Assembly: GCA_038245785.1 (NCBI GenBank)
Contig: JBBRSB010000017.1
Span: forward strand, 1 to 64,000
DNA: 64,000 nucleotides
Source: Gloeobacterales cyanobacterium
GTDB lineage: Bacteria > Cyanobacteriota > Cyanobacteriia > Gloeobacterales > PMM-0068
Reading direction: 5' to 3'
The position numbers and the translations under genes are program-made. The notes beneath the pieces are model-generated. The model did no database searches, was not told where the DNA came from, and worked only from the letters and a program-made list of their open reading frames with translations. This document shows positions 1 to 42,112 of the stretch, piece by piece (position 1 is the first letter of the stretch; the number at the start of each line of letters is the position of its first letter).

Positions 1-141
1 GGTTTCGGGGCGGACCCCGGTCAAACGCTTGAACTCACTGGGTTTAAGGTCTTTGATACGGTCGTAGGTCATAGGTCTATCCGTCTACCATCCCTAACCT
101 ACCCTATGGACTCGGCCTATTCTATTCGTGCAAGAGCTCTA
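1..141 (-). mobile_element. Left end of an IS5-family (ISL2/IS702-like) insertion sequence; transposase starts at 72 and runs out of the window
   Basis: Minus-strand ATG at 72 reads MTYDRIKDLKPSEFKRLTGVRPET, like the N-terminus of cyanobacterial IS5/ISL2 transposases; terminal sequence TAGAGCTCTTGCACGAAT (minus strand, from 141) resembles their inverted repeats. Confidence 0.7.
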
Positions 142-399
142 GTGTGTGGCATCCGTTGGAAGATAGAGGAGTTCCACCGTGAGCTTAAGCAATTGACGGG
201 AGTAGAAGCCTGCCAGTGTGGCAAAGGGAGGATTCAGCGCAATCACATTGCCTGTGCCTTACTGGTGTGGGGCCGTCTAAAAACGCTGGCATACCAGACG
301 GGACAGACAGTCTATCAAATTAAGCATGGGATGCTGTCAAATTACCTAAAGGAGCAACTCAAACATCCGTCCGTTCCGATGATTCTTGCGTAAGTCCTG
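142..399 (+). mobile_element. 3' remnant of an IS701-family transposase with its right inverted repeat
   Basis: VCGIRWKIEEFHRELKQLTGVEACQC..RIQRNHIACA is the C-terminal DDE glutamate region of IS701-like transposases; ends in TGCGTAAGTCCTG (387-399), the typical IS701-type end. Confidence 0.75.
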
Positions 400-474
400 A
401 TTGTGATTCACACAGCCGTCAAGTGATTGAAGTGCTTTTTCGCTAGGGGATTTTGAGCCAAGCTTCTTCAGTCA

Positions 475-514
475 GAAGACTTGCCATTTCCGATAATGGC
501 AAGTCTTCTTTTTT
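475..514. terminator. Rho-independent terminator-like hairpin, probably bidirectional
   Basis: GAAGACTTGCCATT-loop-AATGGCAAGTCTTC perfect stem followed by a T run, directly after the stop of the 520-2166 gene. Confidence 0.75.
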
Positions 515-519
515 GCCCT

Positions 520-2166
520 CTAACTTCTAGGAGCTCTCAGGTTATACTGGCCCCTGGGCTGCTCAAAATCAAGATGGGAAGGAGTTCCCCCTGTTCTGCT
601 CCTAGGTGCTGAGTCCCTAAGCGATTGAAGGTAATGTTCGTAAAGATTGCGATCCTTTGATGAGAGCTGATTAATAGGCTTACTCTGAGAAGTTTCTCCA
701 CGAAGTTTAGCCTGAGAAATATCTTCGTTAAGCTTTTCCTGAAGACGCTCAGCTCGAACACTCTCCCCACGAAGCTTAGCCTGAGAAATGTCTTTGCCAA
801 GTTGAGCCCGAGAAATTTCCTTTAGCCTCAAAACCTGATTCTTATCAAACCGGCTTTCAACTACATCTATTCCTCTCGGATTGATCTTTACACTTCTTGT
901 CCAGCCGGGGTGTGACCGAGCACTTCCGACAGTACCTTTCGGTATAGCCCCAGTAAGTTCATGTTTCTTGGCAGTTTCCACTTCTAAGGGGCTACCTTTA
1001 TGATCTATGAACCGTCTAGTTTCTGTTTTCCTCACTTGATTCAGAGCTTGGTCTTCCATACCTAACATTTCTCGTCTGCCGCTTGACGAAGCGTGCCCGT
1101 GACCTGCCACTACCTTAGATGGATCTATTTTCAGGTCTTTAAGGAGAGAACGAAACGTTTGAGAATTCCTGAATGGCACATTGTTCTTGTTCTTCCTTGA
1201 GATGCTCCCGACAGCAGTAGGCAGCGCTTCAGTGCCTTCCTCAACGCCCTTTACTCCCCTAGCAGATCCTATAGAAACTTCAATACCTTTAGTGGCTTTA
1301 GTCGCTCTTATAGCAACTTTTGCACCTATGGCTGTTGCAGCCACGGCATCGCCTACTCCGGGAACCGCTGCTATGGCAGAGAGGGCCGCATTTGCCTTAT
1401 CTCCTTCTGCTAAATAGATACCAGCACTGGTTAAATCTGCAACAGTACCCAAACCAGGAATGAGACCTGCTACGTCTAATGCACCATGAACAATGCCTTT
1501 ATGCTCATCCCACCAACTCTTTTTCTCAGACTTGTGCGGCTCTGGAGCTGTAGGAGGAGTAAGTTTAAAGGGTCGCCCAGAGCTATCCAGCCCTTGACTA
1601 CTTAAATATGCTGTTCTTGCTCTACTTACTTCTAGGCCAGACTCCTTGATTGCGTCCTGCCTGAGTCCGCCGCGATTCAAGCTTGGAGGGAGAGCCTTAG
1701 CATCCTTGAGCGCTTTGTCCGCTTCGGCAGACTTAAGACGGGCCGTAGCCATGCTTCTATCACGTCGGAGATCGTCTGCCTCTGCCCTTAGACCGCCTCG
1801 ATTCATTCCGGTGATACTGCCAAGTTCTTCTTGTGCTCTCCGAAGTGCTGCACGTGCGGTAGGAAGATCTGCTGCGCTACCAGGAGCAGGACTTACTTTC
1901 TGAGGTGTAACAAGTGGGCTCTGAGCTCGCCGTGTTTCACGGGCAGTTTCTGAATCAGCAAAACTATTGTGACTTTTTGTTGGAGCAGGACTTACTTTCT
2001 TGCTCGTAACAACTTGGCTCTGGGCACGCCGTGTTTCACGGGCAGTTTCCGCATCAGCTGAACTACTGTAATTGTGATGGGTTGCTCGTGGAGAGCCAGT
2101 ATTCAAAGGGTGAAAAGGAGCTGAAACAGGATTTTTTGTAAGTTGTCTGTCTTCTGGGAGAAGCAT
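520..2166 (-). CDS. Polymorphic-toxin-like protein: repeat-rich N-terminus, pre-toxin domain, putative C-terminal nuclease toxin (Ntox5-like)
   Basis: 548-aa ORF with GAGGA RBS; central SWWDE..HGALDVAGLIPGLGTVADL..IYLAEGD..AALS..AAVPGVGD is the conserved pre-toxin segment of polymorphic toxins; downstream VVAGH..S.G....L.MED..LNQ...P.E..T....E..G.IP.GTV..A...GW recalls the Ntox5 pattern. Confidence 0.6.
   Translation of the reverse strand: MLLPEDRQLTKNPVSAPFHPLNTGSPRATHHNYSSSADAETARETRRAQSQVVTSKKVSPAPTKSHNSFADSETARETRRAQSPLVTPQKVSPAPGSAADLPTARAALRRAQEELGSITGMNRGGLRAEADDLRRDRSMATARLKSAEADKALKDAKALPPSLNRGGLRQDAIKESGLEVSRARTAYLSSQGLDSSGRPFKLTPPTAPEPHKSEKKSWWDEHKGIVHGALDVAGLIPGLGTVADLTSAGIYLAEGDKANAALSAIAAVPGVGDAVAATAIGAKVAIRATKATKGIEVSIGSARGVKGVEEGTEALPTAVGSISRKNKNNVPFRNSQTFRSLLKDLKIDPSKVVAGHGHASSSGRREMLGMEDQALNQVRKTETRRFIDHKGSPLEVETAKKHELTGAIPKGTVGSARSHPGWTRSVKINPRGIDVVESRFDKNQVLRLKEISRAQLGKDISQAKLRGESVRAERLQEKLNEDISQAKLRGETSQSKPINQLSSKDRNLYEHYLQSLRDSAPRSRTGGTPSHLDFEQPRGQYNLRAPRS
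698..789 (-). repeat. Intragenic tandem repeat, period 69 bp (DISQAKLRGE)
   Basis: CCACGAAGYTTAGCCTGAGAAAT at 698-720 and 767-789. Confidence 0.8.
1883..2058 (-). repeat. Intragenic tandem repeat, period 99 bp (AD.ETARETRRAQS..VT..KVSPAP)
   Basis: GGAGCAGGACTTACTTTCT at 1883 and 1982; CGCCGTGTTTCACGGGCAGTTTC occurs twice. Confidence 0.85.
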
Positions 2167-2420
2167 TATGATTTCCTCATCGTTGCTTTAAACTTTGCCT
2201 ACTTCCATCTTTTGGCTTGTGGATACTAGAGGCTAAGTTCGATCATTCATTCGCTTGGGGTACACGCTAGCATGCTCTATCTGATTTGTCTCTGTCGTGC
2301 GCATTACATCGAGTTTTTCTAAGCCATATAAATTATTGTATAGCTAGTTAGGAAACATGTGCTTTGAAAATGTAATGTGTGGAGAGGTATCTCTATGGGT
2401 AATCACCTCAATCACCGTTC

Positions 2421-2837
2421 TCAATTTTTATTCTTGATACTACCGGCGCACACTTCCCCCTTTGGTAAGCCTGAGGTCCATTTCTTTAATTCGCTAATAC
2501 GCTTAGCTGTAAGCTCTTCCAGAGCAAGACAGCGACAATCTGAGTTAACACTTCCATAAGCCCGAAGCTTATTCTCGGCTGGATATAGTGAATCAAGATG
2601 GGCATCTCTGAACGCGAGCCAAGCCCGCTGAGCTGTCTTCATCTTTTGAAGAAATACAGAGTCCTGTTTATACTCACTCAATATTTGCTGATAAACTTTG
2701 TTCATCTCTGCATCAGTTGATTTATATCTACTGCAAATATTTTGATTGGTTGATGTCTGAGCTTGGACATTTGGGCTAAATGAAACAAGTGCAGCCGTCA
2801 ACATTAGCCTAAACACGCTTCTCTTAAGTCCGCTCAT
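2421..2837 (-). CDS. Lysozyme inhibitor LprI family (DUF1311) protein, exported
   Basis: Signal peptide (..LMLTAALVSFSPNVQA) then C..Y...D.EMN.VYQQI....AQRAWL.FRD....YGS....C....LT..R..EL, the DUF1311 pattern. Confidence 0.85.
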   Translation of the reverse strand: MSGLKRSVFRLMLTAALVSFSPNVQAQTSTNQNICSRYKSTDAEMNKVYQQILSEYKQDSVFLQKMKTAQRAWLAFRDAHLDSLYPAENKLRAYGSVNSDCRCLALEELTAKRISELKKWTSGLPKGEVCAGSIKNKN

Positions 2838-2944
2838 ACGAGATAACTACCTATCATTTACTCAAAAATCATAGAGGATACGTGTTGTTAAGCATCCTCT
2901 ATAATTTCACAACTTTGATCGCCTATCGTCAGACACACCTGGCT

Positions 2945-4489
2945 CTAGGGTTTTAAGAAGAGCTTTTTCTCCTTATCTCTCCTAGTAACTAACCCTAGTA
3001 GAACTTCCCCACCTGCATGGACATAATCTCCAAAGTCCTTAGCAGCTGCTTTGTAGTTGCCAGCATTCAGATCTTTCAAAAGGCCCGAGTATCCATTTGG
3101 TCCAAGATTGAACGTTAGCGAGGTAAGAGCTGAGAATTGGTTTGAGGTGAGATGAACTTTAACATTCTTCTGAACCGCTGCTTCAGCCCACTTTATATCA
3201 CTTTTCAGAAAAGTCTCAGCTTTGGACTTGCTGATTGAATCACCAGAATGAACACCATGCGTATGTCCATAGCCAATCGTCCACGTACCGCGAGGTCCAG
3301 GAAAATCCTTATAGGCTTTCAGCCTTAATCCTTCGGATTCTTCTACCAGGTTCAACCCTTCCTGATTGATATGCTTTCCAGGACCATTAGGTTTTGGTTT
3401 GGGTACTGGGCTGCTGCCTCCATTGCCGCCTGGCTTGCTAGATGGAAGATAAATGCTCGTTCCAACCTGAAGGTTTTTAGCCTCTTTCTCTGTGAACTTT
3501 GTTCCATCCGCTTCGCGGATTTCATGCCAACGGTTTCCGTTGCCCAATTTCTTCTCAGCGATTCCCGAAAGGGTATCTCCAGAATGAACTACATACTTCT
3601 GCTTCCCTCCATGGTGCGGAGTTGGAGTTGGGCTACTGCCTCCACTGTTGCCGCTTGGCATGCTGGATGGAAGATAGATGCTCGTTCCAACCTGGAGGTT
3701 TTTGGCCTCTTTCTCTGTGAACTTTGTCCCATCCGCTTCGCGGATTTCATGCCAGCGGTTTCCGTTGCCCATTTTCTTCTCAGCGATTCCCGAAAGGGTA
3801 TCTCCAGAATGAACTACATACTTCTGCTTTCCTCCATGGTGCGGAGTTGGAGTTGGGCTACTGCCTCCACCGGACTTACTATCAAAGACTTTCAGAAAAC
3901 GAGCGTCACCACCAAACTTGTACTGGTGGCTATGGACACCTTCTCCCCCTTGCCCTCCTGTATTACCTTCAATGGTCGAGTAACCTTTGGCACTGACCTT
4001 TGCAACAATGCCTATATGTCCAGGCCAGACTACTAAACTGCCAACTTTGGGCTGTGAAAGCCTCAAATCTTTCGAAGACTTATTCCAGATATCGCTCACG
4101 CGACCAGAATTGTAATCTCTGGAGTTTTGACCAGTCGATTTTTCGACAGATTTAGTGCAGTACTGCACAAAGTCTGCACACCACGCTTCTCCTACTTGGC
4201 CACCTGCCCCATCGTGGCCTCCCACCCCCGTGCCTTTCTGGAATTTCTCTACTTGCTTGCCTCTATTTTCCCCGTGCTCGAGCACCCCTAGGAAGGATTT
4301 CGCCTTAGCAATAAGTGCTTCTGCAGCATTGGGTGCCCTGGGCGTAGGTTTCCCCGTCTGATTACTACGGCTAAAGGCATGTGGAGTAGAAACGCTAGCC
4401 AGGCTAGAAGGTGAGGGAGTAACTCCTTTAACAGCAAAACTCCTAGCGTTCTTCTCTTGAAGTGACCGACTAATATATGGTGCAAGCAT
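2945..4489 (-). CDS. Multi-domain peptidoglycan hydrolase: CHAP amidase + 2x LysM + GH24 phage-type lysozyme
   Basis: CHAP motifs AWCADFV, GHIGIV, TIEGNT; two YVVHSGDTLSGIA LysM repeats; GH24 motifs EGLRLKAYKD, WTIGYGHT, QFSALTSLTFNLG, GLVTRR..E; GAGGA RBS. Confidence 0.9.
   Translation of the reverse strand: MLAPYISRSLQEKNARSFAVKGVTPSPSSLASVSTPHAFSRSNQTGKPTPRAPNAAEALIAKAKSFLGVLEHGENRGKQVEKFQKGTGVGGHDGAGGQVGEAWCADFVQYCTKSVEKSTGQNSRDYNSGRVSDIWNKSSKDLRLSQPKVGSLVVWPGHIGIVAKVSAKGYSTIEGNTGGQGGEGVHSHQYKFGGDARFLKVFDSKSGGGSSPTPTPHHGGKQKYVVHSGDTLSGIAEKKMGNGNRWHEIREADGTKFTEKEAKNLQVGTSIYLPSSMPSGNSGGSSPTPTPHHGGKQKYVVHSGDTLSGIAEKKLGNGNRWHEIREADGTKFTEKEAKNLQVGTSIYLPSSKPGGNGGSSPVPKPKPNGPGKHINQEGLNLVEESEGLRLKAYKDFPGPRGTWTIGYGHTHGVHSGDSISKSKAETFLKSDIKWAEAAVQKNVKVHLTSNQFSALTSLTFNLGPNGYSGLLKDLNAGNYKAAAKDFGDYVHAGGEVLLGLVTRRDKEKKLFLKP
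3441..3870 (-). repeat. Near-identical tandem duplication (period 225 bp) encoding linker + LysM
   Basis: 3441-3645 and 3666-3870 differ only by scattered substitutions. Confidence 0.95.
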
Positions 4490-4952
4490 GAATTTTCCTC
4501 GCTTAACATTGTTTGAACTAAAACTGTTCTAGCTAGGTCAAATGTGCTGAGTTGCAAATTGCGACTATTGCTAGACTTTACTTCATTTTATTGGTTCGTT
4601 GAAGTGTGTTTTAGATGTTTTCTTAGTTCTTTGAAATAATGTGTGAAGTGAATACAAGCCCTGAAAGCTCTTCCAAAAGCCATTTTTGGGCTTTCTATCT
4701 AACCCTAAAACATTGCAACAATTATTAACGATAAGCACATAAGCAGAACCAAATTCTAAGTAAATTTTGTTACAAATTATACAGTACTCAAGCTTTATTG
4801 CTCCAGAAAGCTAGCCTGAACTCTTCAGTATTTAAATTAAATATACGGTCCAGGCTGTTAAGTAACTCACTATGCACTCAACATTCGCACAGCAATTTTA
4901 GAAAACAACTTTTTGATAGTTAAAACAAGCATTTTTGATAGAATTTGCAACT

Positions 4953-6539
4953 CTACAAGCCACGAGCGTACTGCTTGGCTTTAGAGAAACTGTTAAAGCT
5001 TTCTACTCGTGAGGTTCCCTTATCAGCGTCTAAATTGACCATCTCTTCGCCTACTTTAGAACCAGCCATACTGCCAGCCATTCCACCTATCAACGCACCA
5101 ATCACTGTGCCTACGCCAGGAACCAACGAACCGATAGCAGCTCCTAGCTCTACGCCTCCTGCTGCACCAACCCATCCTCCTGCTGAACTAACCGCTACTT
5201 TTCGAGCGTTCGGTCCAAAGCCATGGTCCTGTTTCCAAGCACTCCTCAGTTGCACTGCATCAATGGCGAGGCCGACAGGCACAAGCGCTTTAAACGCTCC
5301 TTTAGCGGCTCCACGAACCTGAGCATTGCCAAAGGCTTCAACCACAGGGGTAAGTGGCGGTTTCACCAGCGTAGCCCCTCGTACTTCTCTCGCCAGAGCA
5401 ACGCCACTTCGCGATTCAGCCAGAGGAATCCCGACCCTGATAGCGACATGATGCACTTGAGAGACGCTACCTTGGTGAAGCTTGCCTGCGAGAACAGGCA
5501 AACCAGCCCATAGCGCTGGGGAAGAGGGTCGTGAATTTCTTTGAGTGCCCGATTCACGCTTAAACATTGGATTTCTCGAAGCACTCGAAGTAGTGAAGAA
5601 CGAAGGGGAATGCCTGTCATTTGAGTTTCTTCGAGAAGTCAAGCTCGAAGGGGTTGACCTAGCCGCCGATTTCCGCTCAGGGGCTCCTGTCAAAGCTGCA
5701 GGCTTGGCGCTTAGTTTTCCAGGAGATACGAAAGTAGATGAACCAGATTGGGTGCTCAGCTTACTCGTAGACTTTGGATGAGATTTTGGGGTAAGGGATG
5801 CATAGGGCGTAGACGTAGTACTCAAATTAGGTGAGGAGAGATAGACTTGCGTTCCGGGCTGCAGACGTTTAGCTTGCTTTTCAGTCAAGGAACTACCTTT
5901 AGCCGTGTGGAGTTCATGCCAGCGGCTCCCGCTGCCAAGCCTTTTTTTCGCAATACCCCAAAGGGTATCGCCTTGATGCACTACAAGATGCTTAGAAGCT
6001 ATTGGATCTGGCTTTAAAGAGTTTTTTGTGGAGGCGATACCAGAATCTGTGTGGGTAGGATTGGTAGACAAAAGCCCTGAATGGCGATGTAACGCGGGAG
6101 AGGCCGCAAGATGCTTCTTGGCAGCAGAGTGGACAGAGTTACTGCCGTGAGCGGGCATGTGATGTTTGTAAAGATGACTTTTCGGGGCGCGTCCAGGAAC
6201 TGAAACAACAGGATAGCTCTTGTAGAAGTCTCCAGTCCCAGCTGGTTTTGAGGAGTTTCCACGAACTGGTTGGGGCTTTTTCTGGATAGGCGTATCAGAA
6301 CTCATGTGCGCAGGTAAGGGCTCTACAGAACGAGGAGCTGCAGCCTGTTTGTTATTCTTAGGGCCAGGGCGCCCAGTATTTAAGTGAGATGGATGAGCGT
6401 GGGTTTTGTGTTCATTTTTGGGTGTACTGCTGTAAATGTGCGCAGGGTGATGGCCTTTAGCGGTAAGACCCCCGCTAGGACTTAATGCGTATTGCTCCCG
6501 TTTTCTCTTAAGCTCTGCTGAGGAGGGCATAGATACCAA
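4953..6539 (-). CDS. LysM-domain protein with low-complexity N-terminus and C-terminal glycine-zipper hydrophobic domain (putative membrane-active toxin); start may be ATG 6530
   Basis: VVHQGDTLWGIAKKRLG LysM; C-terminal GGWVGAAGGVELGAAIGSLVPGVGTVIGALIGGMAGSMAG GxxxG zipper. Confidence 0.7.
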   Translation of the reverse strand: MVSMPSSAELKRKREQYALSPSGGLTAKGHHPAHIYSSTPKNEHKTHAHPSHLNTGRPGPKNNKQAAAPRSVEPLPAHMSSDTPIQKKPQPVRGNSSKPAGTGDFYKSYPVVSVPGRAPKSHLYKHHMPAHGSNSVHSAAKKHLAASPALHRHSGLLSTNPTHTDSGIASTKNSLKPDPIASKHLVVHQGDTLWGIAKKRLGSGSRWHELHTAKGSSLTEKQAKRLQPGTQVYLSSPNLSTTSTPYASLTPKSHPKSTSKLSTQSGSSTFVSPGKLSAKPAALTGAPERKSAARSTPSSLTSRRNSNDRHSPSFFTTSSASRNPMFKRESGTQRNSRPSSPALWAGLPVLAGKLHQGSVSQVHHVAIRVGIPLAESRSGVALAREVRGATLVKPPLTPVVEAFGNAQVRGAAKGAFKALVPVGLAIDAVQLRSAWKQDHGFGPNARKVAVSSAGGWVGAAGGVELGAAIGSLVPGVGTVIGALIGGMAGSMAGSKVGEEMVNLDADKGTSRVESFNSFSKAKQYARGL

Positions 6540-6709
6540 ACTCCAGTCTATAAATTCTGCTTGTACTGTCTTGCTTACGTATTATTAAAGCTAGGACTAG
6601 GACTTATGCTGACCTGTGACTTGCGTAAATACTACTACATATCCTCTTAAGTAGCCAAATCGCTCATAGACTAATCAAAAGCTTCAAACTATCTCTAGCA
6701 GCACTGAGT

Positions 6710-9241
6710 TCAGACGGTACTAAGTTGCCTTTGGTACAAAGCCCAATACACTCCTTTTTGTTCAAGAAGTTGATCGTGTTTACCCTGTTCCACAATCACA
6801 CCTTTCTCCATAACTAAAATCAAGTCTGCTCGTTTCAAGGGTGCAAATCGATGAGCAACCATAAAGACAGTACGGCCCCCTGAAACCTCCTGTAAATTCT
6901 GCAGTACCTTTTGCTCTGTTTCGCTATCCAAGCCGCTAGTAGCTTCATCCAAGATTAGGATTGGAGCTTTAGAAAGGAATAGCCGACATAAAGCAATCCG
7001 TTGTCGCTGACCTCCCGATAGACCCACGCCCCGCTCACCAATGTGGGTCTGATAGCCTTGGGTCATCTCCGTGATAAATTCATGGGCTGCTGCTAGTTTT
7101 GCTGCCGTAATAATTTGTTCATCACTAATATCTGGGTCATTCATAGTGATGTTTTCAGCAATCGAACCGTTAAACATGAAATCATCTTGCAGAACGACGC
7201 CAATTTGTTTGCGTAGAGAAACAATATCAGCCGTTTTAATGTCAAAGCTATCAATTTGAATAGAGCCTGATTCGGCCTGGTAAAGTCGTTGTAAAAGCTT
7301 AGAAAGAGTACTTTTACCTGAGCCGCTACGTCCTACAATTCCAACAAACATTCCTGGCTGGGCAGTAAAGGATATGCCTTTAAGAATTGCTTCTTGTCCA
7401 GGTTGATAACGGAACACTATTCGATCGAAACTGACTTGACCCTTAATCTTCGGTAGATTCATCCCAGCCCCGGCTTCTGCTTCTGGAGTCGCATTGAGAA
7501 TATCTCCCAGACGGTCTACGGAAAGCAGGACTTGCTGAAATTCTTGCCAAAGTTGCACAAGACGCAAAAGCGGGTCCGTCACCTTTCCTGAGAGCATTTG
7601 AAAAGCAACTAAGGCTCCGATGGTCAGCTTTTGGTCGATGACCTGTTGGGCTCCGAAATAGAGAATGATTAAAGAAGAGAACTTCGTTAGAAAGTCACCA
7701 AGACTACTACCAGCATTTGAGGTCGTAGAAGACTTGAAGCTGGTTCGAACATAACGAGCAAATAGACCTTCCCAACGCTTGCGGGACTTGAGCTCTGCTG
7801 CATGGGCTTTAATCGTATGTATTCCTGTTACTGTCTCTACCAGAAAAGATTGACTATCTGCACCACGGTCAAAGGTCTCATTCAGCCAGTTGCGCAGAAT
7901 AGGCGTTAAAAAGAGCGTCAGTGCTGCAAAAAATGGAAGCACTGCCAGCGCGACCCAAGTGAGGGTAGCACTATAGGAGAACATGACGGCCAGATACACT
8001 ACAGAGAATAGACTATCGAGCAAGACTGTTAAAGCAGTGCCCGTTAGGAATTGACGAATATTTTCTAGCTCTCGAGTTCTAGCAACCGTATCGCCTACCC
8101 GACGTGATTCAAAATAATTCAAAGGTAAACGCATCAGATGGCGGAACATCTGTGCTGATAGTCCTAGGTCTAAACGATTGGCCGTATGGGTGAAAATAAA
8201 GAGCCGTAGGAAACCAAAACTGGCTTCAAAGATGGCAACGCCAAGCAGTGCAAATGCCATTACATCCAGCGTGCCACGATTGCCATAGACAATTGCTCGG
8301 TCAATAACAAACTGTGTGATCACCGGCGTTGCTAAACCCAGAAGCTGCAGGGCTAAAGAAACCAACAGTACTTCTGAAAGCAATCCTCGATAACGCAAAA
8401 TCGCAGGGACAAACCAACTGAGGTTGAATTTTTCTTGCTTTTGAAGCAGTTCTACTTGCCAAAGTTGTCCATCCCAGTCCTTTTCAACCATAGGTTGAGA
8501 GATGCTTTCACACGTTTGATTGAGGTTTAGGGGATTGCCAATAAGCATGCGATTCCCTTGCACACCATAGACCACAACCCAATCCTGTCGTCTCCAGTTC
8601 AACTGCAACAAAGCCGGAAAAGATAACTGCTGCAAATCATCCCAACGAACTACTAACTGTTGAAGCTGGAGCCCAATTTTCTCCCCAGCTTCGATCACAT
8701 CATTAGGCTCAGCAGAACGCAGTTGACGTTGCACTAGCTCTAAGGGCACAGGATTTTGCAGCTGTTGCGCTGCCATTGCTAAGCACGCAGCCGCCGTATT
8801 GGGGCTGAAGACAAATGGATAACCTGGCACAGGCTGAGGAATATCCATATCTTGAGGTTGATAGCGCAACCGCAGTTCATTCCAGAAACGGACCAGTTCT
8901 GGTGATGAAACCCTAGACCAGAGGGCTGCATCCCAACGTAAAACCACTACTTCCTTACTAGAGGCCACCGCTTGAAATTGCCCAGAAAGTTTTAGTGCGT
9001 CTCCAAACCAATCTCCTCCTGCCAAAGTAGCGAGAGATCTAACTTTGCTCTTTTCTTTTAGACGGACTTGACCGGAAACAAGGAGAAATTGCCCTCTTGA
9101 ACTATCACTATCCGTGGACCAAACCACTTGACCAAGGCCATACCGCTGGAGTTCTACTCGATTCTTAAACTGGATTTTCTGTTCATTATTCAATGAACGA
9201 AATGGTAACTTTTCCCACTGTATATATGTTTGTAAGTTCAT
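6710..9241 (-). CDS. Type I secretion ABC transporter (HlyB-like) with N-terminal cNMP-binding-like and C39 peptidase-like domains
   Basis: Walker A GRSGSGKST, signature LSGGQRQRIA, Walker B LILDEATSGLD, AHR; TM domain with YFESRRVGD; N-terminal GDWFG (cNMP-like) and AACLAM (C39-like). Confidence 0.93.
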   Translation of the reverse strand: MNLQTYIQWEKLPFRSLNNEQKIQFKNRVELQRYGLGQVVWSTDSDSSRGQFLLVSGQVRLKEKSKVRSLATLAGGDWFGDALKLSGQFQAVASSKEVVVLRWDAALWSRVSSPELVRFWNELRLRYQPQDMDIPQPVPGYPFVFSPNTAAACLAMAAQQLQNPVPLELVQRQLRSAEPNDVIEAGEKIGLQLQQLVVRWDDLQQLSFPALLQLNWRRQDWVVVYGVQGNRMLIGNPLNLNQTCESISQPMVEKDWDGQLWQVELLQKQEKFNLSWFVPAILRYRGLLSEVLLVSLALQLLGLATPVITQFVIDRAIVYGNRGTLDVMAFALLGVAIFEASFGFLRLFIFTHTANRLDLGLSAQMFRHLMRLPLNYFESRRVGDTVARTRELENIRQFLTGTALTVLLDSLFSVVYLAVMFSYSATLTWVALAVLPFFAALTLFLTPILRNWLNETFDRGADSQSFLVETVTGIHTIKAHAAELKSRKRWEGLFARYVRTSFKSSTTSNAGSSLGDFLTKFSSLIILYFGAQQVIDQKLTIGALVAFQMLSGKVTDPLLRLVQLWQEFQQVLLSVDRLGDILNATPEAEAGAGMNLPKIKGQVSFDRIVFRYQPGQEAILKGISFTAQPGMFVGIVGRSGSGKSTLSKLLQRLYQAESGSIQIDSFDIKTADIVSLRKQIGVVLQDDFMFNGSIAENITMNDPDISDEQIITAAKLAAAHEFITEMTQGYQTHIGERGVGLSGGQRQRIALCRLFLSKAPILILDEATSGLDSETEQKVLQNLQEVSGGRTVFMVAHRFAPLKRADLILVMEKGVIVEQGKHDQLLEQKGVYWALYQRQLSTV

Positions 9242-9253
9242 AAAGGCTACCTA

Positions 9254-10045
9254 CTAGAAATCTACCTTTAGTTGGACATCTGCTTTTTGTATTTTCTCCT
9301 CCAACCATTGTTCAAAAAGCTCGTCTTCTAGTACTTGCTTTAAGGACTCATCTAATGAAGCTGGCAGCAATTTTTCTACACGAAACAAATACCAAAGCTC
9401 CTCAATTTCTAGAGGTCCAATCAGTTCTCCAGATTCAGCGGAATCGATAGCCATTCTCAGCTCATCTGGCATCGCACCTCTACTGATAGCTCCCATCATT
9501 CCGTTAAGCGTACTATCCTCAGCAATAGAGTGTTCTTGAACTAAAAGCTCAAATCTAATGCCATCTTCCAGTATTTGACTTTTCAACTCCTCTGCTAATG
9601 TTTGTTCTTCTATAACTAAACGTGATAATACGACTCGGTCTAGATACAGCTTGCGCTTGATGAAATATTCTTGCAAATTCGGCTTGGTAATCTTAGCTTT
9701 AAGTTTTTTAAGCTTTAAATTAAAGATAACTCGTTCACGGAAAGTAGCGTAGTTTATTCTTTCATCGGCAAGCCACTCTTGAAAGCTTTCTAGACTAGTG
9801 AGTTGACGCTCTAGCCGGAAATCAATGACGGCCTGCTCAATCAAATCAGAACCAACATCCAGCTCCTCTGAAGCCTGCAATTGCTGTTCTATGACATGCT
9901 GGCGCATGATTTCCCAAAGCACAGAATTGAGTCTTCCATTAGCTTCTAAATATCTCAAGGCCTGCCCAAGCGATATGGACTGGTTATCGGCTGTTAAAAA
10001 TGGACTCGCAGGTTCTGTCATAAAAAATGTTTTGCGTGATTGCAA
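9254..10045 (-). CDS. PpiC/parvulin-type peptidyl-prolyl isomerase associated with T1SS ABC transporters (start probably ATG 10021)
   Basis: F..L..EHSI.EDS..NG.MG......P.EL......GELIGP rotamase pattern; 12 bp upstream of the ABC gene. Confidence 0.85.
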   Translation of the reverse strand: MQSRKTFFMTEPASPFLTADNQSISLGQALRYLEANGRLNSVLWEIMRQHVIEQQLQASEELDVGSDLIEQAVIDFRLERQLTSLESFQEWLADERINYATFRERVIFNLKLKKLKAKITKPNLQEYFIKRKLYLDRVVLSRLVIEEQTLAEELKSQILEDGIRFELLVQEHSIAEDSTLNGMMGAISRGAMPDELRMAIDSAESGELIGPLEIEELWYLFRVEKLLPASLDESLKQVLEDELFEQWLEEKIQKADVQLKVDF

Positions 10046-14413: not shown

Positions 14414-15091
14414 TTGTTTTCCAAGCTGATAGAGGCTCAGAAAATGACTACTCCAATTTTAGAGAAGGCGCTTCGTGAGGCTCCCATTTCTGTGGTGGAA
14501 GCAGTAACCCGTGTCCTTGAAGAATCTCATCGGCAACCGACTAAAGCTGCTTTCTTCGCCCGTAGTATCAATGCCCTAATGGAAGTCAGCGAGGGAACTT
14601 CTCTCGTGGATGTGATGGCTGCCCCCACAGACCCAGCGGTGTTGCTTGGAATTCTTGAACGTCCAGAGGTACTGAAGCAGCTTGCAGGGGTAGACCCCTT
14701 AATTCCAGCCCGCATTCGTGGAATCAGACTTAAGCAGGAACTCCTCAGTATGGAAGGAGGCGTTGTTTCCAGTGAACAAGTGGCAAAGCTCCTCAATCTC
14801 ACCCGTCAAGGGGTGGATAAGCGACGGGCCAGTGGCAAGCTAATTGGCATATCTATGGGTAGACGTGGTTACGCTTATCCCGTTTGGCAATTTCAGGATG
14901 GGCAGGTTCTGCCTGGGCTTGAGAATGTACTAAAAGCGATGAAAGAGCATGCCCCCTGGACTCAAGTGATGTTCATGCTCACAGGGGATCTCCGTCTCAA
15001 GGGGGAGACTCCTTTGGCACAGTTACGTCAGGGAGATATTGATTCTGTAGTGCAGGCAGCGCGGTGCTATGGCGAACAAGGCGCAGCCTGA
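14414..15091 (+). CDS. Antitoxin of a RES toxin-antitoxin pair (HTH + MbcA/Xre-like C-terminus); start likely ATG 14444
   Basis: SSEQVAKLLNLTRQGVDKRR HTH, YPVWQF, L.GETPL..L; overlaps the RES gene. Confidence 0.75.
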   Translation: MFSKLIEAQKMTTPILEKALREAPISVVEAVTRVLEESHRQPTKAAFFARSINALMEVSEGTSLVDVMAAPTDPAVLLGILERPEVLKQLAGVDPLIPARIRGIRLKQELLSMEGGVVSSEQVAKLLNLTRQGVDKRRASGKLIGISMGRRGYAYPVWQFQDGQVLPGLENVLKAMKEHAPWTQVMFMLTGDLRLKGETPLAQLRQGDIDSVVQAARCYGEQGAA

Positions 15092-15683
15092 CGAACCTTT
15101 GAATCCTCACCCAGAGCCACCAGAGAATCTGGCAGCGCAGGAACTGTCCATCAAGCAGTTGGACGGGCCGTGGTACCGCCTGCATTCGTCTTCGAGGCAA
15201 GCGTTGTACTTTGGATGTAGTGGAACCAATCGTTTCGATGCTCCTCAGCGGGAATATGGCATTCTCTACGTTGGAATAGATGAATATGGCCCGTTTATTG
15301 AGAGTTTTGGACGTGTGCATGGAAAGAGAGGAGTCGAACTCTCCTTGCTGAAAACTAAAAATCTTTCTCGAATTGAATCAGACAGAGCGCTCAACTTGGT
15401 GGATATGACAGGCAAGGGCTTGGTATTGCTGGGAGCCGATGCTCGGCTTGCTTCTGGAGACTACCGTGTAGCTCAACGGTGGGCACAAGCTTTATGGCAA
15501 CATCCCAGTCAACCGGACGGATTAATCTATCACTCGCGCCATGATGATGAACGGGTCTGCGGTGCCATCTTTGACCGAACTAGTAAGAATTTAAGTGAAC
15601 ATAACCTGGGCAGTCTTGCAGACCAACAAAATGCTCGATTACTAGCGGCACTGCTCGACCACTATGAGTTTGCCTTGCTATAG
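15069..15683 (+). CDS. RES-domain toxin (putative NAD+-consuming)
   Basis: WYRLH, NRFDAP..YGILY, IE.FGR, DGLIYHSRHD contain the R/E/S residues. Confidence 0.88.
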   Translation: MANKAQPDEPLNPHPEPPENLAAQELSIKQLDGPWYRLHSSSRQALYFGCSGTNRFDAPQREYGILYVGIDEYGPFIESFGRVHGKRGVELSLLKTKNLSRIESDRALNLVDMTGKGLVLLGADARLASGDYRVAQRWAQALWQHPSQPDGLIYHSRHDDERVCGAIFDRTSKNLSEHNLGSLADQQNARLLAALLDHYEFALL

Positions 15684-15756
15684 CTTGCCGTAGCTCTCTG
15701 ATACAATTAAGGTCATACGTTCACATCTCCGTGATGCGTAGCCTGTTCTCTAATCC

Positions 15757-18700
15757 ATGACTGAACATAACTACAATTGGAAACGCTTCTTTTGTCCACG
15801 TGAAGGTCGTCTCGACCTATTATCTGACGGAGGTTATCTTGTTGACCCAGAGGCAGACTGGGCGAAGTACCTTAGCCAGGATCTGAAAGAATTCAGCGCC
15901 ATAATCGATGCTCCCTGCCTAATACTGCTCGGCGAACGTGGCATAGGGAAATCTCGATTTCTCAAAGCCCAAAAAAACAGTATTGATCAACGGGTTAAGG
16001 AAAGAGGAGGAACGCTTTTATGGCTAAACCTCAATTCATTTAGTAGTGATAGCACTCTAATAGATGAGCTATTTAAGAGCCGCGAATTCATCGATTGGAC
16101 GACAGGATCTCATGAACTTCACCTCTGGCTGGATAGCTTTGATGAGTGCCAATTACACATCAAAACTTTAGAGGGTCTGCTCATCCGTAAACTCGAGCCT
16201 CATACTGAAAAAATAGAGCGGTTATTCCTCCGTATTGCCTGTCGCACAGCTGGATGGCCCAAAAGTTTGGAACAGGAATTAAATCAATTATGGAAAGACA
16301 AAGCACTGAGAGTCTATGAATTAGCCCCTTTGCGCCGTATCGATGTGAGAGAAGCAGCAACTAAAAATAATTTAGTTCCAGAGGAGTTCTTCGTTGAAGT
16401 TAGGCGTACCCAAACTACACCTTTTGCTATAAAGCCTGTCACTCTAGACTTTCTTATCGATCTCTACAAACAGAATCAGCATCTGCCACAGACCCAATCC
16501 GAATTGTACTTACAGGGATGTCAACTTCTATGTAAAGAGAGTCGCAACTTAGAATTAATGAGAAAGCTCACATTTCAAAAACGTATGGCTATAGCCTCAC
16601 GTATTGCGGCACTTACCCTTTTCACTAACCGATCTGCAATCTGGACAGAAACAGAGCAAGGAAATATGCCTGATGGGGACATAACTATCGAGCAAATGTG
16701 TGGAGGTCAGGATAGTGCAGACATGAATGGACTCCCCAAAGAATTTGAGGTAGAGCGACCTGAGATTGAGGAAACTCTCGCTACAGGATTATTTTCAGCC
16801 CGTGGAGTAGGGCGCATAGGTTGGGCACACCAAAGCTATGCAGATTACCTCGCTGCAAAGTACCTCAAAGACCGCAAGCTAGAACTCCCCCAAATGATGT
16901 CTCTCATAACTCATCCAGATGATCCAGAGAAGCATTTAGTCCCACAACTTTATGAAGCCGCTGCTTGGCTTGGCACGATGGACTCAGGAGTATTTCAGGA
17001 AATCATGAGAACAGATCCTGATGTTTTACTCCTTAGTGATGTGGCATCAGTAGATGAAGCAAACCGTGCCGCTCTTGTAGAAGAGTTGTTGAAGTTAATT
17101 AATGAGGGGAAGATAAATACGTGGAGCTATAGGCAGTATTCAAAGTTAAAACACTCAAACATTGAACAGCAATTGCGCCTTTATCTGCGAGACAAGAGTA
17201 AAACGACTGATGCCCATAAAGTTGCGATCGAAATAGCAGAATCCTGTAATGTTCGATTACTTCAACAATATTTAGTAGACATTGCATTAGAGACTACTGA
17301 GTCTATCGAAGTACGGGAGAACGCAGCTCGAGCAGTTAGTTCCATTGGAGATGAGCATACAAAAAAACTCTTGAAACCTCTGGCGACTGGTGATGCAGGA
17401 GAAGATCCACGTGATCAACTAAAGGGCTATGGGCTGAAAGCAATATGGCCCGAAGGCATAAGCGCCCAAGAGTTATTTACTTTACTTACACCACCTAAGC
17501 AAAATAACTATTTTGGAGCTTACAATAAATTTATTTATGATGATTTAGTAGACGGTCTTCAACCAAAAGACTTACCTATTGCTCTCAACTGGATAGAAAA
17601 TGAACCTGAATGCGTACATGATGCCTTGCATCTATTTAGCGATCTCGCAGATGCTATCTTGACCTTAGCTTGGAAGCATCTACTAGCTGTTCATGATGTG
17701 TTGACAGGTTTTGCTAAAGTTGCACTAAAGCGCCTAAAAAGTGATGGCTATATCATTCAGAAAAATGGGGATTCATCATTTTATACTGAGTTGTATAATG
17801 ATGAGACTAAGCGACTTACTCTTGTCAAAGAACTAGTTTCATTAGTCTCAAGATCTGAGCGGGATAATGATGCCAATTATTCTTCCTTAGTACACAGTAG
17901 TGATATTCCTTGGATGATTGAATGTCTCCAGGCATCAAATGATAATAAGGAGGAAAAGGTCTGGACTAGGCTTCTAAAAAGAGCATGGCTTGATGAATCT
18001 GATAATCCTAAATATTGTGATGCCATTATTAATGCATCTGAAATTAATCAAACTCTCAGAGATTTTTTTACTCTGCCTGCAGTTGTCTTCGACTCAGCGC
18101 AAGCCCAACAGATGATAGATGAGTACCAGCTTTTTGAGGCATACGAAGAACAAGATAGACAGAGGAAAGCACGACTTCATATAGGCCGAAATCCCTCACA
18201 GAAAGTTGAAGAATGCCTGAATGCATTCGAGTCAGGAGATATGGATGCTTGGTGGCACTTAAATTGGTTTTTGACCTTTAGTTTAGAGAGTAAATCTTGT
18301 AGTGAAATAGAACCTGATCTAACTACATATCCAGGGTGGATAGCATCTACTACTGCTACTCAGAGAAGGATTATAAATGCAGCCCAGCGTTACATTTTAG
18401 AAGGAGAGCCACAAATAAGTGAATGGTTAGGCAAAAACAAAATCCATCGACCCGCTTATGCAGGGTACAGAGCATTACAGCTTCTCATAAAAGAGAATTT
18501 TACTTCTATTGAGGCTATCCCTGCTGAAGTGTGGGAGAAGTGGGCATCAATTATTCTTAAGTACCCTACTGCGGAAAATTCAGATGCTGAAAAATTTCAA
18601 AAAGAACTGTTCAAGAAAGCGTATCAGTATGCTCCCAATAATATACTTTCAACCTTAAAAATTCTAATCGATGAGGAGATTCAGGAAGGACATGGTTATA

Positions 18701-20019
18701 TTTTTATCATTAATAGAGTGAAATTCTGTTGGGATAAACAGATTGCCCAATTGTTATTAACAAAAGCTCAGGAAGATAACTTAAAAATTTCCCATCTGAA
18801 GTGTCTACTTGAGGTGCTTCTTGAACAAAATGATTTGGATGCTATTTCCTTCGGGGAATCTCTTGTACAGTTTAAACAACAAAAAGCTGGTCACCGAAAA
18901 CGCAGACGAGGCTCTTTTCAAAAAGCAGTTATTGCATCACGTCTTCTAATAAGCCATTCATCTAAGATGCATTGGGAGACTATTTGGTCTGCTATCAGAC
19001 AGGACATTTATCTAGGCAGAAAAATTGCTGAAGCTGTAGCGTCTTACTGTGATATGAATGGTTTTGCTAGTAATAGTCTTTGCTTCCAAGAAGAACAGAG
19101 TGCTGACTTGTATATCTGGCTTGGTCACCAATATCCTTACTTACAAGATCCTCAACGTGATAATGGAGTTTATACTCCTGGAGTAAGAGACTATATTACC
19201 CAATTGAAATACTCTTTACTTAACCAGCTAAAAGAGCGTGGCACAGTCCAAGCCATCGAGCAAATGCAGAGAATTATGCTGGAATTTACTGATCTTGATT
19301 GGCTAAAGTTGACTTTGAAGGAAACTAAGTACAAGACTTATCAAAACATCTGGAGAGCACCTGAACCGCAAGATGTACTCAAGCTGACACAAGGCCAACA
19401 CAAACGCTTGGTGCAAAACGGTGAACAACTTCTTGAAGTATTGATTGAATCTCTGAAAAGGTTAGAACAGGAACTGCAGGGTGAGACGCCGCAAGCAATT
19501 GATCTATGGAATGAGATTGACAAGAATATTTTCAGACCTAAAGATGAGAATAGATTCTCTGATTACGTGAAGAGACATCTTGAAAAAGACCTCAAGTCAG
19601 CGCAGATATTAGTTAATCGAGAGGTCGAATTTCGCCGTGGTACTGGTGGACAACCTGGAGAACGACTTGATATTAAAGTAGATGTTTTTATTCCAGATAA
19701 TAATGGAGAAAAAATTAAAATCACTGCCATCATCGAAGTAAAAGGTTGCTGGAATACTGGTCTCAATTCTGCCATGAGAGATCAACTTGCAGGCCGCTAT
19801 CTCGAAGAAAGCCAGTGTTATCATGGGCTCTACTTAGTTGGATGGTATTTTTGCCCTCAATGGGATGAGAATCATCAACCGAACAAAAATGCTCTCCGGC
19901 TTACTACGGAGTTCCGTGATATCGACAGCGCACAGAGCCACTTCGACGAACAGGCAGCAGCTCTATCTTCAGATGGTAAGCAGGTCCGAGCCTTTGTCAT
20001 AAACACTGCATTGCGATAG
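15757..20019 (+). CDS. NACHT/STAND-type NTPase with helical repeat region and C-terminal PD-(D/E)xK-like domain (candidate anti-phage protein)
   Basis: Walker A LLGERGIGKS, Walker B LWLDSFDE, LRIACR, WAHQSYADYLAA winged-helix motif; C-terminal DE...NREV...LDIKV...IIEVKGCWN. Confidence 0.75.
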   Translation: MTEHNYNWKRFFCPREGRLDLLSDGGYLVDPEADWAKYLSQDLKEFSAIIDAPCLILLGERGIGKSRFLKAQKNSIDQRVKERGGTLLWLNLNSFSSDSTLIDELFKSREFIDWTTGSHELHLWLDSFDECQLHIKTLEGLLIRKLEPHTEKIERLFLRIACRTAGWPKSLEQELNQLWKDKALRVYELAPLRRIDVREAATKNNLVPEEFFVEVRRTQTTPFAIKPVTLDFLIDLYKQNQHLPQTQSELYLQGCQLLCKESRNLELMRKLTFQKRMAIASRIAALTLFTNRSAIWTETEQGNMPDGDITIEQMCGGQDSADMNGLPKEFEVERPEIEETLATGLFSARGVGRIGWAHQSYADYLAAKYLKDRKLELPQMMSLITHPDDPEKHLVPQLYEAAAWLGTMDSGVFQEIMRTDPDVLLLSDVASVDEANRAALVEELLKLINEGKINTWSYRQYSKLKHSNIEQQLRLYLRDKSKTTDAHKVAIEIAESCNVRLLQQYLVDIALETTESIEVRENAARAVSSIGDEHTKKLLKPLATGDAGEDPRDQLKGYGLKAIWPEGISAQELFTLLTPPKQNNYFGAYNKFIYDDLVDGLQPKDLPIALNWIENEPECVHDALHLFSDLADAILTLAWKHLLAVHDVLTGFAKVALKRLKSDGYIIQKNGDSSFYTELYNDETKRLTLVKELVSLVSRSERDNDANYSSLVHSSDIPWMIECLQASNDNKEEKVWTRLLKRAWLDESDNPKYCDAIINASEINQTLRDFFTLPAVVFDSAQAQQMIDEYQLFEAYEEQDRQRKARLHIGRNPSQKVEECLNAFESGDMDAWWHLNWFLTFSLESKSCSEIEPDLTTYPGWIASTTATQRRIINAAQRYILEGEPQISEWLGKNKIHRPAYAGYRALQLLIKENFTSIEAIPAEVWEKWASIILKYPTAENSDAEKFQKELFKKAYQYAPNNILSTLKILIDEEIQEGHGYIFIINRVKFCWDKQIAQLLLTKAQEDNLKISHLKCLLEVLLEQNDLDAISFGESLVQFKQQKAGHRKRRRGSFQKAVIASRLLISHSSKMHWETIWSAIRQDIYLGRKIAEAVASYCDMNGFASNSLCFQEEQSADLYIWLGHQYPYLQDPQRDNGVYTPGVRDYITQLKYSLLNQLKERGTVQAIEQMQRIMLEFTDLDWLKLTLKETKYKTYQNIWRAPEPQDVLKLTQGQHKRLVQNGEQLLEVLIESLKRLEQELQGETPQAIDLWNEIDKNIFRPKDENRFSDYVKRHLEKDLKSAQILVNREVEFRRGTGGQPGERLDIKVDVFIPDNNGEKIKITAIIEVKGCWNTGLNSAMRDQLAGRYLEESQCYHGLYLVGWYFCPQWDENHQPNKNALRLTTEFRDIDSAQSHFDEQAAALSSDGKQVRAFVINTALR

Positions 20020-41025: not shown

Positions 41026-42112
41026 TTAAGGAAACTCCAAAGTCAATTGGTCTGTGTGTATAGTGCTTTGATCTTCGTTGGGAAAGTTGGAGATGGACAA
41101 ACCCAACAAACGGATGCGACGCTCATCTGCTGGTAAGGATTTAAGCAATTGATGCCCTAAAAGAAAGAGACTTTCGGCCTTATGCAAAAGCTCTGGCACT
41201 GTCCGGCTGCGGGTCAACTGTTGCAGATCCGCATATTTGAGTTTCAGAACCAGGGTATGTCCCGTTAACTGGTTTTTTTCAAGGCGTTCCTGCAATACCT
41301 GAGACAACATGCATAGTTGTTCTACAAGAACGTCGAAGTCTGACAGATCTTCAAGAAAAGAGGTTTCAACGCCTATAGACTTTCGGCTGCGATTTGGAAT
41401 GACCGGGCGGCTATCTTGCCCATGAGCCATTTGATAGTAGAAGTGCCCATGCTTCCCGAAGTGACGAGCTAAATCTATTGCAGTCCATTGCTTGAGGTCA
41501 GCGCCCGTTCGAATGCCCAGGGTGTACATCCTTATCTGCAGTAGCCTTTCCCACTCCATAGAATTTCTCAATTACTAAGGCCTCAATCAGGGCCTCGGCT
41601 TCATCGGGTTGGATAATGCGTAGTCCATCAGGTTTGTTCAATCCAGAAGCAAGCTTTGCCAGGAATTTATTGTAGGAAACTCCTGCTGAAGCCGTGAGGC
41701 CCGTTTGTTCAAAGATAGCTGCTCTTATCTTGCGAGCAATAAGGGTAGCGGAGGGAATACCAAGCTTATTTGTGGTTACCTCTAAGTAGGCTTCGTCCAA
41801 GGCCAGCGGTTCAACCAAGTCTGTGTAGCGGAGGAAGATTTGATGAATCTGCTCGGAGATGGCTTTGTATACATCGAATCGAGGTGGGGCGAAGATCAGG
41901 TCCTTACACTTTTGGATAGCCAGACGTGAGGGCATTGCAGAGTGGATACCGTAGCGACGGGCTTCATAACTGGCGGCAGCTACCGCTCCCCGTTGCTGAG
42001 GTGTACCACCAACCACCAACGGTTTACCCCGGAAGGCTGGATTATCGCGCTGCTCTACAGAGGCGTAGAAAGCGTCCATATCCAGGTGAATGATTTTGCG
42101 GAGGGTTGGCAT
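41026..42112 (-). pseudogene. dinB: DNA polymerase IV split by a single-base frameshift
   Basis: IHLDMDAFYASVEQ, ASYEAR, LALDEAYL in one frame; LGIRTGADL, RKSIGVETSF, IRLLGL in the next; extra base at 41530-41531. Confidence 0.9.

Follow-up and report, generated by a model that had tools for sequence, protein, structure and literature searches.

What does a type I secretion pump carry when the genes behind it encode large proteins that resemble toxins? The question is raised by the first 64,000 nucleotides of contig JBBRSB010000017.1 in the Gloeobacterales cyanobacterium assembly GCA_038245785.1 (hereafter the window). An earlier note on this DNA had described six co-oriented minus-strand genes at 520..10045, and the lengths of the open reading frames (ORFs) together with Pfam and TIGRFAM domain calls confirmed them: ORFs of 263, 843, 528, 514, 138 and 548 aa run from a PpiC/SurA-like rotamase (PPIase) to a protein called here toxin 1. 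The locus extends beyond the window, being truncated by the start of the contig. We consider it fairly probable that this is a type I-exported polymorphic toxin system, in which a dedicated type I secretion system (T1SS) would export large, modular and exchangeable effectors encoded between hlyB and hlyD, the mechanism being one that we infer. A bolder formulation describes an unrecognised class of cyanobacterial polymorphic toxins, where HlyB and PPIase would read an uncleaved N-terminal leader and leave the C-terminus free for toxin swapping, with a multi-effector cocktail, almost no immunity genes and spread by plasmids; we hold it more tentatively, as a serious possibility that falls a little short of probable. 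Throughout, G000 denotes the 5.0-Mb source assembly, C17 the contig that starts with the window, and C7, C27 and so on its other contigs; L-numbers denote related loci from metagenomes or genomes, P-numbers library proteins and G-numbers genomes.

The first two genes would supply the pump. The PPIase gene (9254..10045, minus strand like the five that follow; likely start ATG 10021) matches PF00639 above its cut-off and is presumed to encode a cytoplasmic chaperone for the cargo. Next to it, at 6710..9241, lies an HlyB-type ATP-binding cassette (ABC) transporter that scores 791 bits against TIGR01846 (cut-off 725.55), with Walker A, signature, Walker B and H-loop all intact in its nucleotide-binding domain. 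The earlier note had called this protein cNMP/C39-like. The C39 half of that description stands, in the form of a match without the catalytic residues (Cys to Thr, His to Asp), and, the reference paralogue apart, none of the 58 aligned transporters retains the catalytic Cys. The cyclic-nucleotide half (an N-terminal CAP_ED/cNMP domain) found no Pfam match at E<=0.1, its likeness being by eye only. Genes for TolC-family channels (PF02321 OEP matches) exist in G000, for example at C2:147913-149145. The assembly also holds three further PPIase-HlyB-HlyD units (C7:51615-56748, C10:9746-20310 and C11:49607-54806), and the C10 transporter retains an intact C39 catalytic motif.

Behind the pump stand three large cargo genes and one small gene. 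The cargo proteins carry net charges of +23 to +43 and consist of 18-27% serine, proline and histidine, and none has a hydrophobic N-terminal stretch: the best 11-residue hydropathy within the first 45 aa is at most 0.63, compared with 2.08 for the small LprI-family protein. These values bear out the previous description of large, basic, S/P/H-rich proteins that lack a Sec signal. The repeats-in-toxin (RTX) motif GGxGxD is absent from all 15 cargo examined in G000 and related loci. A shared size of 514-548 aa, once read as meaningful, proved incidental, as cargo in related loci span 306 to 1127 aa.

Cargo 1 (4953..6539) probably begins at ATG 6530, preceded by GGAG, which gives 525 aa. It comprises a disordered basic N-terminus, one LysM (~aa 180-235) and a C-terminal glycine-zipper hydrophobic module, with a hydrophobic segment at aa 464; its Pfam matches are weak and below cut-offs, and the Pfam scan recognised no enzyme domain. 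The same glycine-zipper module is found in L104, L143, L145, L237 and P0153. Cargo 2 (2945..4489) combines CHAP, two LysM and a GH24 phage lysozyme domain, every one above its cut-off. It retains C104 and H158 in CHAP and E386, D395 and T404 in GH24, residues we take to be catalytic, and is predicted to be a peptidoglycan hydrolase without a signal peptide. Its three domain types, differently ordered, also sit immediately before HlyD in L122 and L132. The LprI-family gene at 2421..2837 follows (PF07007 above cut-off, signal-peptide-like N-terminus), and its product is a candidate periplasmic immunity protein that would bind the lysozyme. LprI genes behind lysozyme-like effectors of a type VI secretion system (T6SS) in Pantoea are proposed to block lysozyme (PMC9796082; this and the other papers are cited for their available sections).

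Cargo 3, or toxin 1 (520..2166, 548 aa), opens with an ML-x-x-ED start and repeats, continues through a hydrophobic pre-toxin hairpin at aa ~218-290 and ends in an Ntox5-like domain with A354-G355-H356, E366, E371 and N376. Toxin 1 itself matches no Pfam family. It is placed in Ntox5 because the homologous C-terminal domains of its relatives, to which it is 41-49% identical, match PF15543 above cut-off. An alignment-based model of this domain (pLDDT 84.8) depicts a strand-strand-helix (beta-beta-alpha) core with invariant AGH and N, which presumably recalls the His-Me finger (HNH-like) nucleases; a single-sequence fold of aa 213-548 reached pLDDT 47 and was unusable. Foldseek returned no match to the model at E<=0.001, and the VIA-align rows covered its helical tail only (best Z 7.2). 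PDB sequence searches with the Ntox5 profile and with a URI profile gave no match, and the ESM Atlas gave none that was usable. A scan of G000 ORFs for the toxin start and LysM-type motifs recovered genes that belong to this locus and, besides them, only two ORFs that look unrelated.

Toxin 1 has a single paralogue in G000, toxin 2 at C7:4416-5861, which faces an HlyD gene at C7:5987-7273 (TIGR01843 232.9 versus a cut-off of 208.65) with no HlyB beside it. The ~200 bp of DNA upstream of toxin 1 (2168..2366, minus strand) and of toxin 2 align with 144 of 201 columns identical, at a score of 156 against a shuffle maximum of 39, and this homology points to duplication of promoter and gene together. 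Past toxin 1 by 11 bases is a terminator-like perfect 15-bp hairpin at 474..509 with its T-run on the plus strand, although counts of terminator-like and promoter sites do not exceed those in shuffled sequence. Beyond the hairpin lies the 3' half of an IS701 transposase (142..393, plus strand; NF049921 profile positions 242-317), interrupted by the right end of a multi-copy insertion element (1..141, plus strand) that breaks the assembly. The matching 5' part stands at the start of C7 (NF049921 2-247), so placed that the profile positions abut, and each half is cut off by an end of that one multi-copy element.

That element has four left and five right ends at contig edges, and a 745-nt contig of it shows a depth of 306 versus about 60 (~5x). 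The assembly alone cannot pair C7 with C17 because of these several ends, and no contig of two runs spans the gap. The sole IS701 3' half found in the genome is the one on C17, and the sole 5' half at an end of the element is the one on C7. Given the split IS701 together with synteny and trees that include L180 and L237, the locus very probably continues from C17 onto C7 with toxin 2 and HlyD. The gene order would then be PPIase > HlyB > LysM-glycine-zipper protein > CHAP-LysM-GH24 hydrolase > LprI > toxin 1, followed by the interrupted IS701, an IS982, a 127-aa ORF, a Crp fragment and finally toxin 2 >< HlyD.

Inspection of the closest pump relatives reveals this layout in one piece. On the metagenome contig L180, PPIase is 66% and HlyB 71% identical to the G000 proteins, a pre-toxin protein of 604 aa follows, and the HlyD that converges on it is 53% identical. 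A four-gene cassette of the same layout, L237, is found on plasmid 1 of Calothrix brevissima NIES-22 (AP018208.1, NIES22_67690-67720), where PPIase is 66%, HlyB 70% and HlyD 56% identical and the cargo is a 630-aa protein running from LysM to a glycine zipper. G000, L180 and L237 form an exclusive clade, sub-clade A, with a support of 1.0 in FastTree phylogenies of both HlyB (59 rows) and HlyD (32 rows). A first tree had shown the G000 HlyB as a long basal branch; adding L180 placed it within the main clade. Codons of the locus have a third-position GC content (GC3) of 0.34-0.43 versus a genome median of 0.49, and because of this slightly low GC3 and the plasmid-borne relative, horizontal gain of the cassette by G000 is likely. 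No orthologous PPIase was found in the 13 genomes of the same order and no orthologous HlyB in the five tested, two same-genus genomes included; a 1.8-kb contig of G002 carries a related HlyD.

The arrangement recurs in a sister HlyB clade, sub-clade B (support 0.997), in which hlyD follows the cargo in the same orientation. When species genomes were scanned with one HlyD of this sub-clade, 11 loci emerged: eight read HlyB>cargo>HlyD and three are cut off by a contig edge, the toxin being visible in one of them and a small gene in another. In total, cargo adjoins an HlyD of these families in 18 loci besides G000, with HlyB on the same contig in 15. This count drops the duplicates L120, L121 and L165 and leaves out L133, where HlyB and HlyD accompany an unrelated acidic protein upstream; L134, L135 and L163 make up a further split case. 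The 18 loci are not independent events, since several are closely related and two pairs come from one assembly each. The cargo gene begins 34-122 bp past hlyB in most loci of sub-clade B. PPIase is present at some of these loci and missing at L123, L131, L141, L142, L144, L145, L149 and L150.

The cargo of these loci differ chiefly in their ends. Pfam recognises Ntox5 in L131 and L142, GH24-LysM-CHAP in L122 and L132, and an SsdA-type deaminase (SsdA_C) in L144 and, more weakly, L229; glycine-zipper ends occur in L237 and, weakly, in L143 and L145, and a colicin-type DNase (Col-Pyo_DNase) end in P0026, a protein without visible gene context. Most sub-clade B toxins start with an S8 peptidase domain, a feature absent from the G000 toxins. 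The residues Y-x-G, R, [RK]xxE and N, which form the Tox-URI1 pattern of Zhang 2012 (PMC3482391), recur in toxin 2 and in the ends of L109, L122 and L141; neither Pfam nor PDB searches recognised these ends, and the URI label denotes a match to that motif only. Comparison of near relatives reveals where the exchange takes place. As far as aa 360, toxin 2 and P0005 are 70-95% identical in the 60-aa windows that they share (an indel occupies one of these); past that point identity is 13-18%, and P0007 and P0008 repeat this pattern of like start and divergent end. In the Calothrix cargo and P0153 it is the two ends that agree, at 70-100% identity, with the middle at 20-30%. That is to say, toxin domains are swapped among close relatives. 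Arrays of orphan toxin cassettes were not seen in the loci read.

The export signal may lie at the N-terminus. For sub-clade B proteins of different architecture, the first 60 aa are alike in seven of ten pairs at z 8.5-16 and in one at 3.9, with no likeness in two L109 pairs. This contrasts with the last 60 aa, where z is at most 1.0 in nine of the ten pairs, although C-terminal secretion signals of RTX/HlyA-type substrates are known for poor conservation of their sequence. The shared start fits an N-terminal signal, and gene duplication could also explain it. An ML-x-x-ED start is found in toxins 1 and 2, in several library proteins and in the Calothrix cargo.

From these elements a route out of the cell can be proposed. 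The T1SS would consist of PPIase, HlyB with its dead C39-like domain, the C7-encoded HlyD and a channel of the TolC family whose gene lies elsewhere, and the G000 effectors of the CHAP/GH24 wall hydrolase, the putatively membrane-active LysM-glycine-zipper protein, and the Ntox5-like and URI-like, nuclease-like toxins with their shared pre-toxin hairpin. The cargo may be kept unfolded by PPIase together with the C39-like domain, on the model of HlyB (PMC8277102); the pump would recognise it by its disordered N-terminus, and the cargo would cross both membranes in one step. Little immunity would be needed, we propose, because one-step export spares the producer's cytoplasm and periplasm, and the periplasmic LprI would guard against incoming lysozyme. 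Outside the cell, LysM may anchor the effectors on bacterial walls, CHAP and GH24 would cut the wall, and the hairpin or the glycine zipper would insert in the target membrane and pass the nuclease in. Targets would probably be non-kin bacteria in sediment or biofilm. Both export and killing by the G000 cargo are what we infer from sequence.

Several observations weigh against a dedicated toxin exporter. The export signal is one source of doubt. The leader profile of sub-clade B finds no match in the G000 cargo, the ML-x-x-ED likeness of the G000 toxins to the Calothrix cargo is weak (z 2.0-2.1), and the starts of the hydrolase, cargo 1 and the L180 toxin have nothing clear in common with it. 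A single universal leader for all cargo was for that reason rejected, and a leader in the G000 cargo can be put forward only as a hypothesis, because those cargo miss the profile and their starts differ or match weakly.

The distribution of pump and modules is a second source. PPIase matches at E<=1e-40 occur in 101 of 301 cyanobacterial genomes, G000 included, and among 40 loci around the top-scoring ones HlyB adjoins in 35 and HlyD is nearby in two. None of these 40 loci contains a blast match to the window cargo, and in some genomes PPIase and HlyB stand before PPC, cadherin or S8 proteins instead. Co-occurrence of such cargo with this type of ABC transporter, which the earlier note had expected in other genomes, thus holds within the two sub-clades, where 15 other loci read HlyB>cargo>HlyD, and breaks down across the whole family. 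All four module types (pre-toxin, LysM, glycine-zipper and Ntox5) are also found apart from HlyB and HlyD, and T1SS genes accompany the pre-toxin hairpin at 2 of 64 metagenome loci. The LysM type scored E<=1e-17 in nine genomes outside its profile, with HlyD beside it in G175 only and, in those of the others that were read, no HlyB or HlyD in the stretch examined. LysM and hairpin were accordingly dropped as strict markers of the system. LysM does not hold up as a general targeting module either, since both nuclease-like toxins of G000 lack it and its type occurs apart from the pump. In a separate observation, more distant PPIase copies without HlyB directly precede giant proteins (L101, L103, L106, L107, L108, L136 and L137) of >1,000 to 4,700 aa with low-complexity N-termini, several cut by the locus edge; these are possible trans-encoded substrates of the main-clade pump.

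Immunity genes are the third. A co-oriented ORF of at least 80 aa lies between the last cargo and hlyD in 7 of 19 loci, and one of these looks spurious. Among the gap ORFs there is no immunity gene directly behind toxin 1 or toxin 2, and LprI would suit the hydrolase alone. Related proteins of 188-226 aa stand behind three different toxin ends (L144:9070-9750, L145:6966-7646 and L150:9185-9751) and, because the same type follows all three, are not toxin-specific immunity proteins. LprI relatives occur in 2 of 300 other cyanobacterial genomes, in neither beside a lysozyme, and the L122 and L132 hydrolases have no LprI behind them. The best immunity candidates are a DUF4279 ORF after the toxin in L140 and an S1-like ORF in L123. 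Another related protein, of 190-260 aa, sits inside four sub-clade B cassettes (L104:14350-15003, L122:7203-7976, L138:1275-1967 and L163:1873-2436); it has a signal-peptide-like stretch and, in the two copies scanned, no Pfam family, and is a candidate immunity or accessory factor. Finally, G000 encodes a contractile injection system on C27.

The alternative that survives best accepts type I export and assigns it a job other than killing bacteria. The proteins might act on grazers, fungi or algae or build surface aggregates or matrix, and the hydrolase might serve the cell's own wall or feed on wall debris. We regard this as unlikely. Immunity genes are mostly absent, which Zhang 2012 (PMC3482391) takes as a sign of distant or host targets; main-clade relatives of the pump stand before adhesin-like PPC/cadherin proteins, and cargo 1 has no enzyme domain. 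Against this, GH24, CHAP and LysM belong to families generally known to act on peptidoglycan, the DUF4279 and S1-like ORFs stand behind toxins, and LprI-family genes follow lysozyme-like effectors in Pantoea (PMC9796082).

Less likely still is an exit by other means (the C27 contractile system, vesicles or lysis), with the T1SS a hitch-hiking neighbour on a mobile element and the hlyB-hlyD gap an insertion hot spot. The C27 region at 15560-37803 holds Pvc16, sheath, tube, VgrG-like and PAAR-like genes, the last three by reading. Ntox5 is listed by Zhang 2012 (PMC3482391) with export by Photorhabdus virulence cassettes (PVC) only and without immunity; one cassette is plasmid-borne, and insertion sequence (IS) elements and a Crp fragment lie inside the G000 locus. 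Two markers of extracellular contractile injection systems (eCIS) were searched and found in three of five cassette genomes, G000 among them. Yet the complete genomes G220 and G285 carry cassettes and match neither marker, the layout recurs in two separate transporter clades, and in most sub-clade B loci the cargo gene starts 34-122 bp after hlyB. By reading, no HExxH PVC-metallopeptidase motif was seen in the G000 cargo. A DUF4157 search gave no match anywhere, controls included, and WXG100 none in the five cassette genomes.

That the G000 locus is a decaying, non-working relic of a plasmid-borne cassette, whatever its relatives do, appears improbable. In keeping with a relic, the locus contains a truncated Crp-like gene and three IS insertions, its GC3 is low, and the two same-genus genomes yielded no PPIase or HlyB orthologue; yet each of the eight cassette genes is open over its full length and keeps its catalytic motifs, and every insertion lies between genes. 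Least credible of all is a bacteriocin exporter of the Wang 2011 type (groups I, II and VI) whose true substrates are small double-glycine peptides unrelated to the large genes, as the parts are the same (long C39-ABC transporter, SurA-like rotamase and HlyD; PMC3140520) but the transporters lack the catalytic Cys and, by eye, the short ORFs listed for two inter-cargo gaps of the window include no obvious small precursor.

Other features were seen outside the cassettes. At L128:7425-11504, L129:8981-11828, L130:9267-12103 and L160:7360-12485, two or three coiled-coil genes precede proteins of 270-300 aa with a common N-terminus and pre-toxin or glycine-zipper modules, and WXG100 scores above cut-off in L129:9840-10844; these loci may represent a cyanobacterial polymorphic toxin system of a type VII-like kind. 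Within the window, 14414-20019 has the look of a defence island: behind an Xre/MbcA-like antitoxin paired with a RES toxin comes a protein of 1420 aa whose matches to NACHT and HEAT are weak. A DNA polymerase IV-like gene at 41026-42112 reads as two overlapping ORFs with an apparent frameshift. The stretch 28842-55251 resembles a metal-resistance island: it groups two efflux units of the resistance-nodulation-division (RND) type and their outer-membrane proteins with a cation-diffusion transporter and two-component genes.

If a type I-exported toxin system is the right reading, type I secretion would be added to the export routes of polymorphic toxins, C39-like transporters would no longer be tied, as a rule, to RTX proteins bearing a C-terminal signal, and cyanobacteria, described as poor in polymorphic toxin systems (PMC3482391), would gain a protein weapon against their neighbours. 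Some of the clusters now listed as exporters of cyanobacterial bacteriocins may, on this view, transport large proteins. An exporter that moved proteins of 50-120 kDa in one step, by way of a portable N-terminal leader, would be of use in engineering secretion in cyanobacteria, and the four-gene version in Calothrix brevissima NIES-22 makes the reading testable in a named strain.

The machine is already known as a bacteriocin exporter (PMC3140520) and polymorphic toxins are known as well; what would be new is the pairing of such toxins with type I export. No description of that pairing was found in the open-access literature, and the supplements of Zhang 2012 and Wang 2011 may list such loci. 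Like the polymorphic toxins of Zhang 2012 (PMC3482391), the cassette cargo join a constant N-terminal part, a pre-toxin region and a variable toxin domain (Ntox5, URI, deaminase, HNH), with subtilisin-like and LysM accessories. They differ in that the available text names type I export for RTX toxins only and Ntox5 with PVC export only, the terms 'T1SS' and 'HlyD' having 0 occurrences in it; in addition, immunity genes and spare cassettes are mostly missing here and the toxin domain can be internal. PVC/eCIS-delivered toxins share Ntox5, a frequent lack of immunity genes and polar N-termini, but the genes described here stand between hlyB and hlyD, also in genomes without the two eCIS markers searched. 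Cyanobacterial bacteriocin clusters I, II and VI (Wang 2011, PMC3140520) have the same long C39-ABC transporter, SurA-like rotamase and HlyD, and group VI has S8 peptidase proteins; their precursors are 28-164 aa, in contrast to toxin-like cargo of 300-1100 aa behind a catalytically dead C39. The Caulobacter CdzABCDI system (PMC5380434) likewise exports glycine-zipper proteins through a T1SS to kill neighbours on contact, its toxins entering the target membrane. Cdz toxins are 5-10 kDa and paired with a membrane immunity protein, whereas here the zipper is a module of 50-70 kDa proteins beside nucleases and wall hydrolases, and cargo 1 has no membrane-protein gene behind it. The nearest machine is HlyA/HlyB/HlyD/TolC (reviewed in PMC8277102), with its C39-like HlyB, its HlyD and a large cargo without a Sec signal. 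That review, in its available sections, links the C39-like domain to cargo of the RTX type, whose signal is C-terminal, which contrasts with the present cassettes, where RTX repeats are lacking, C-termini are unrelated, and the cargo of one sub-clade has a conserved N-terminal leader.

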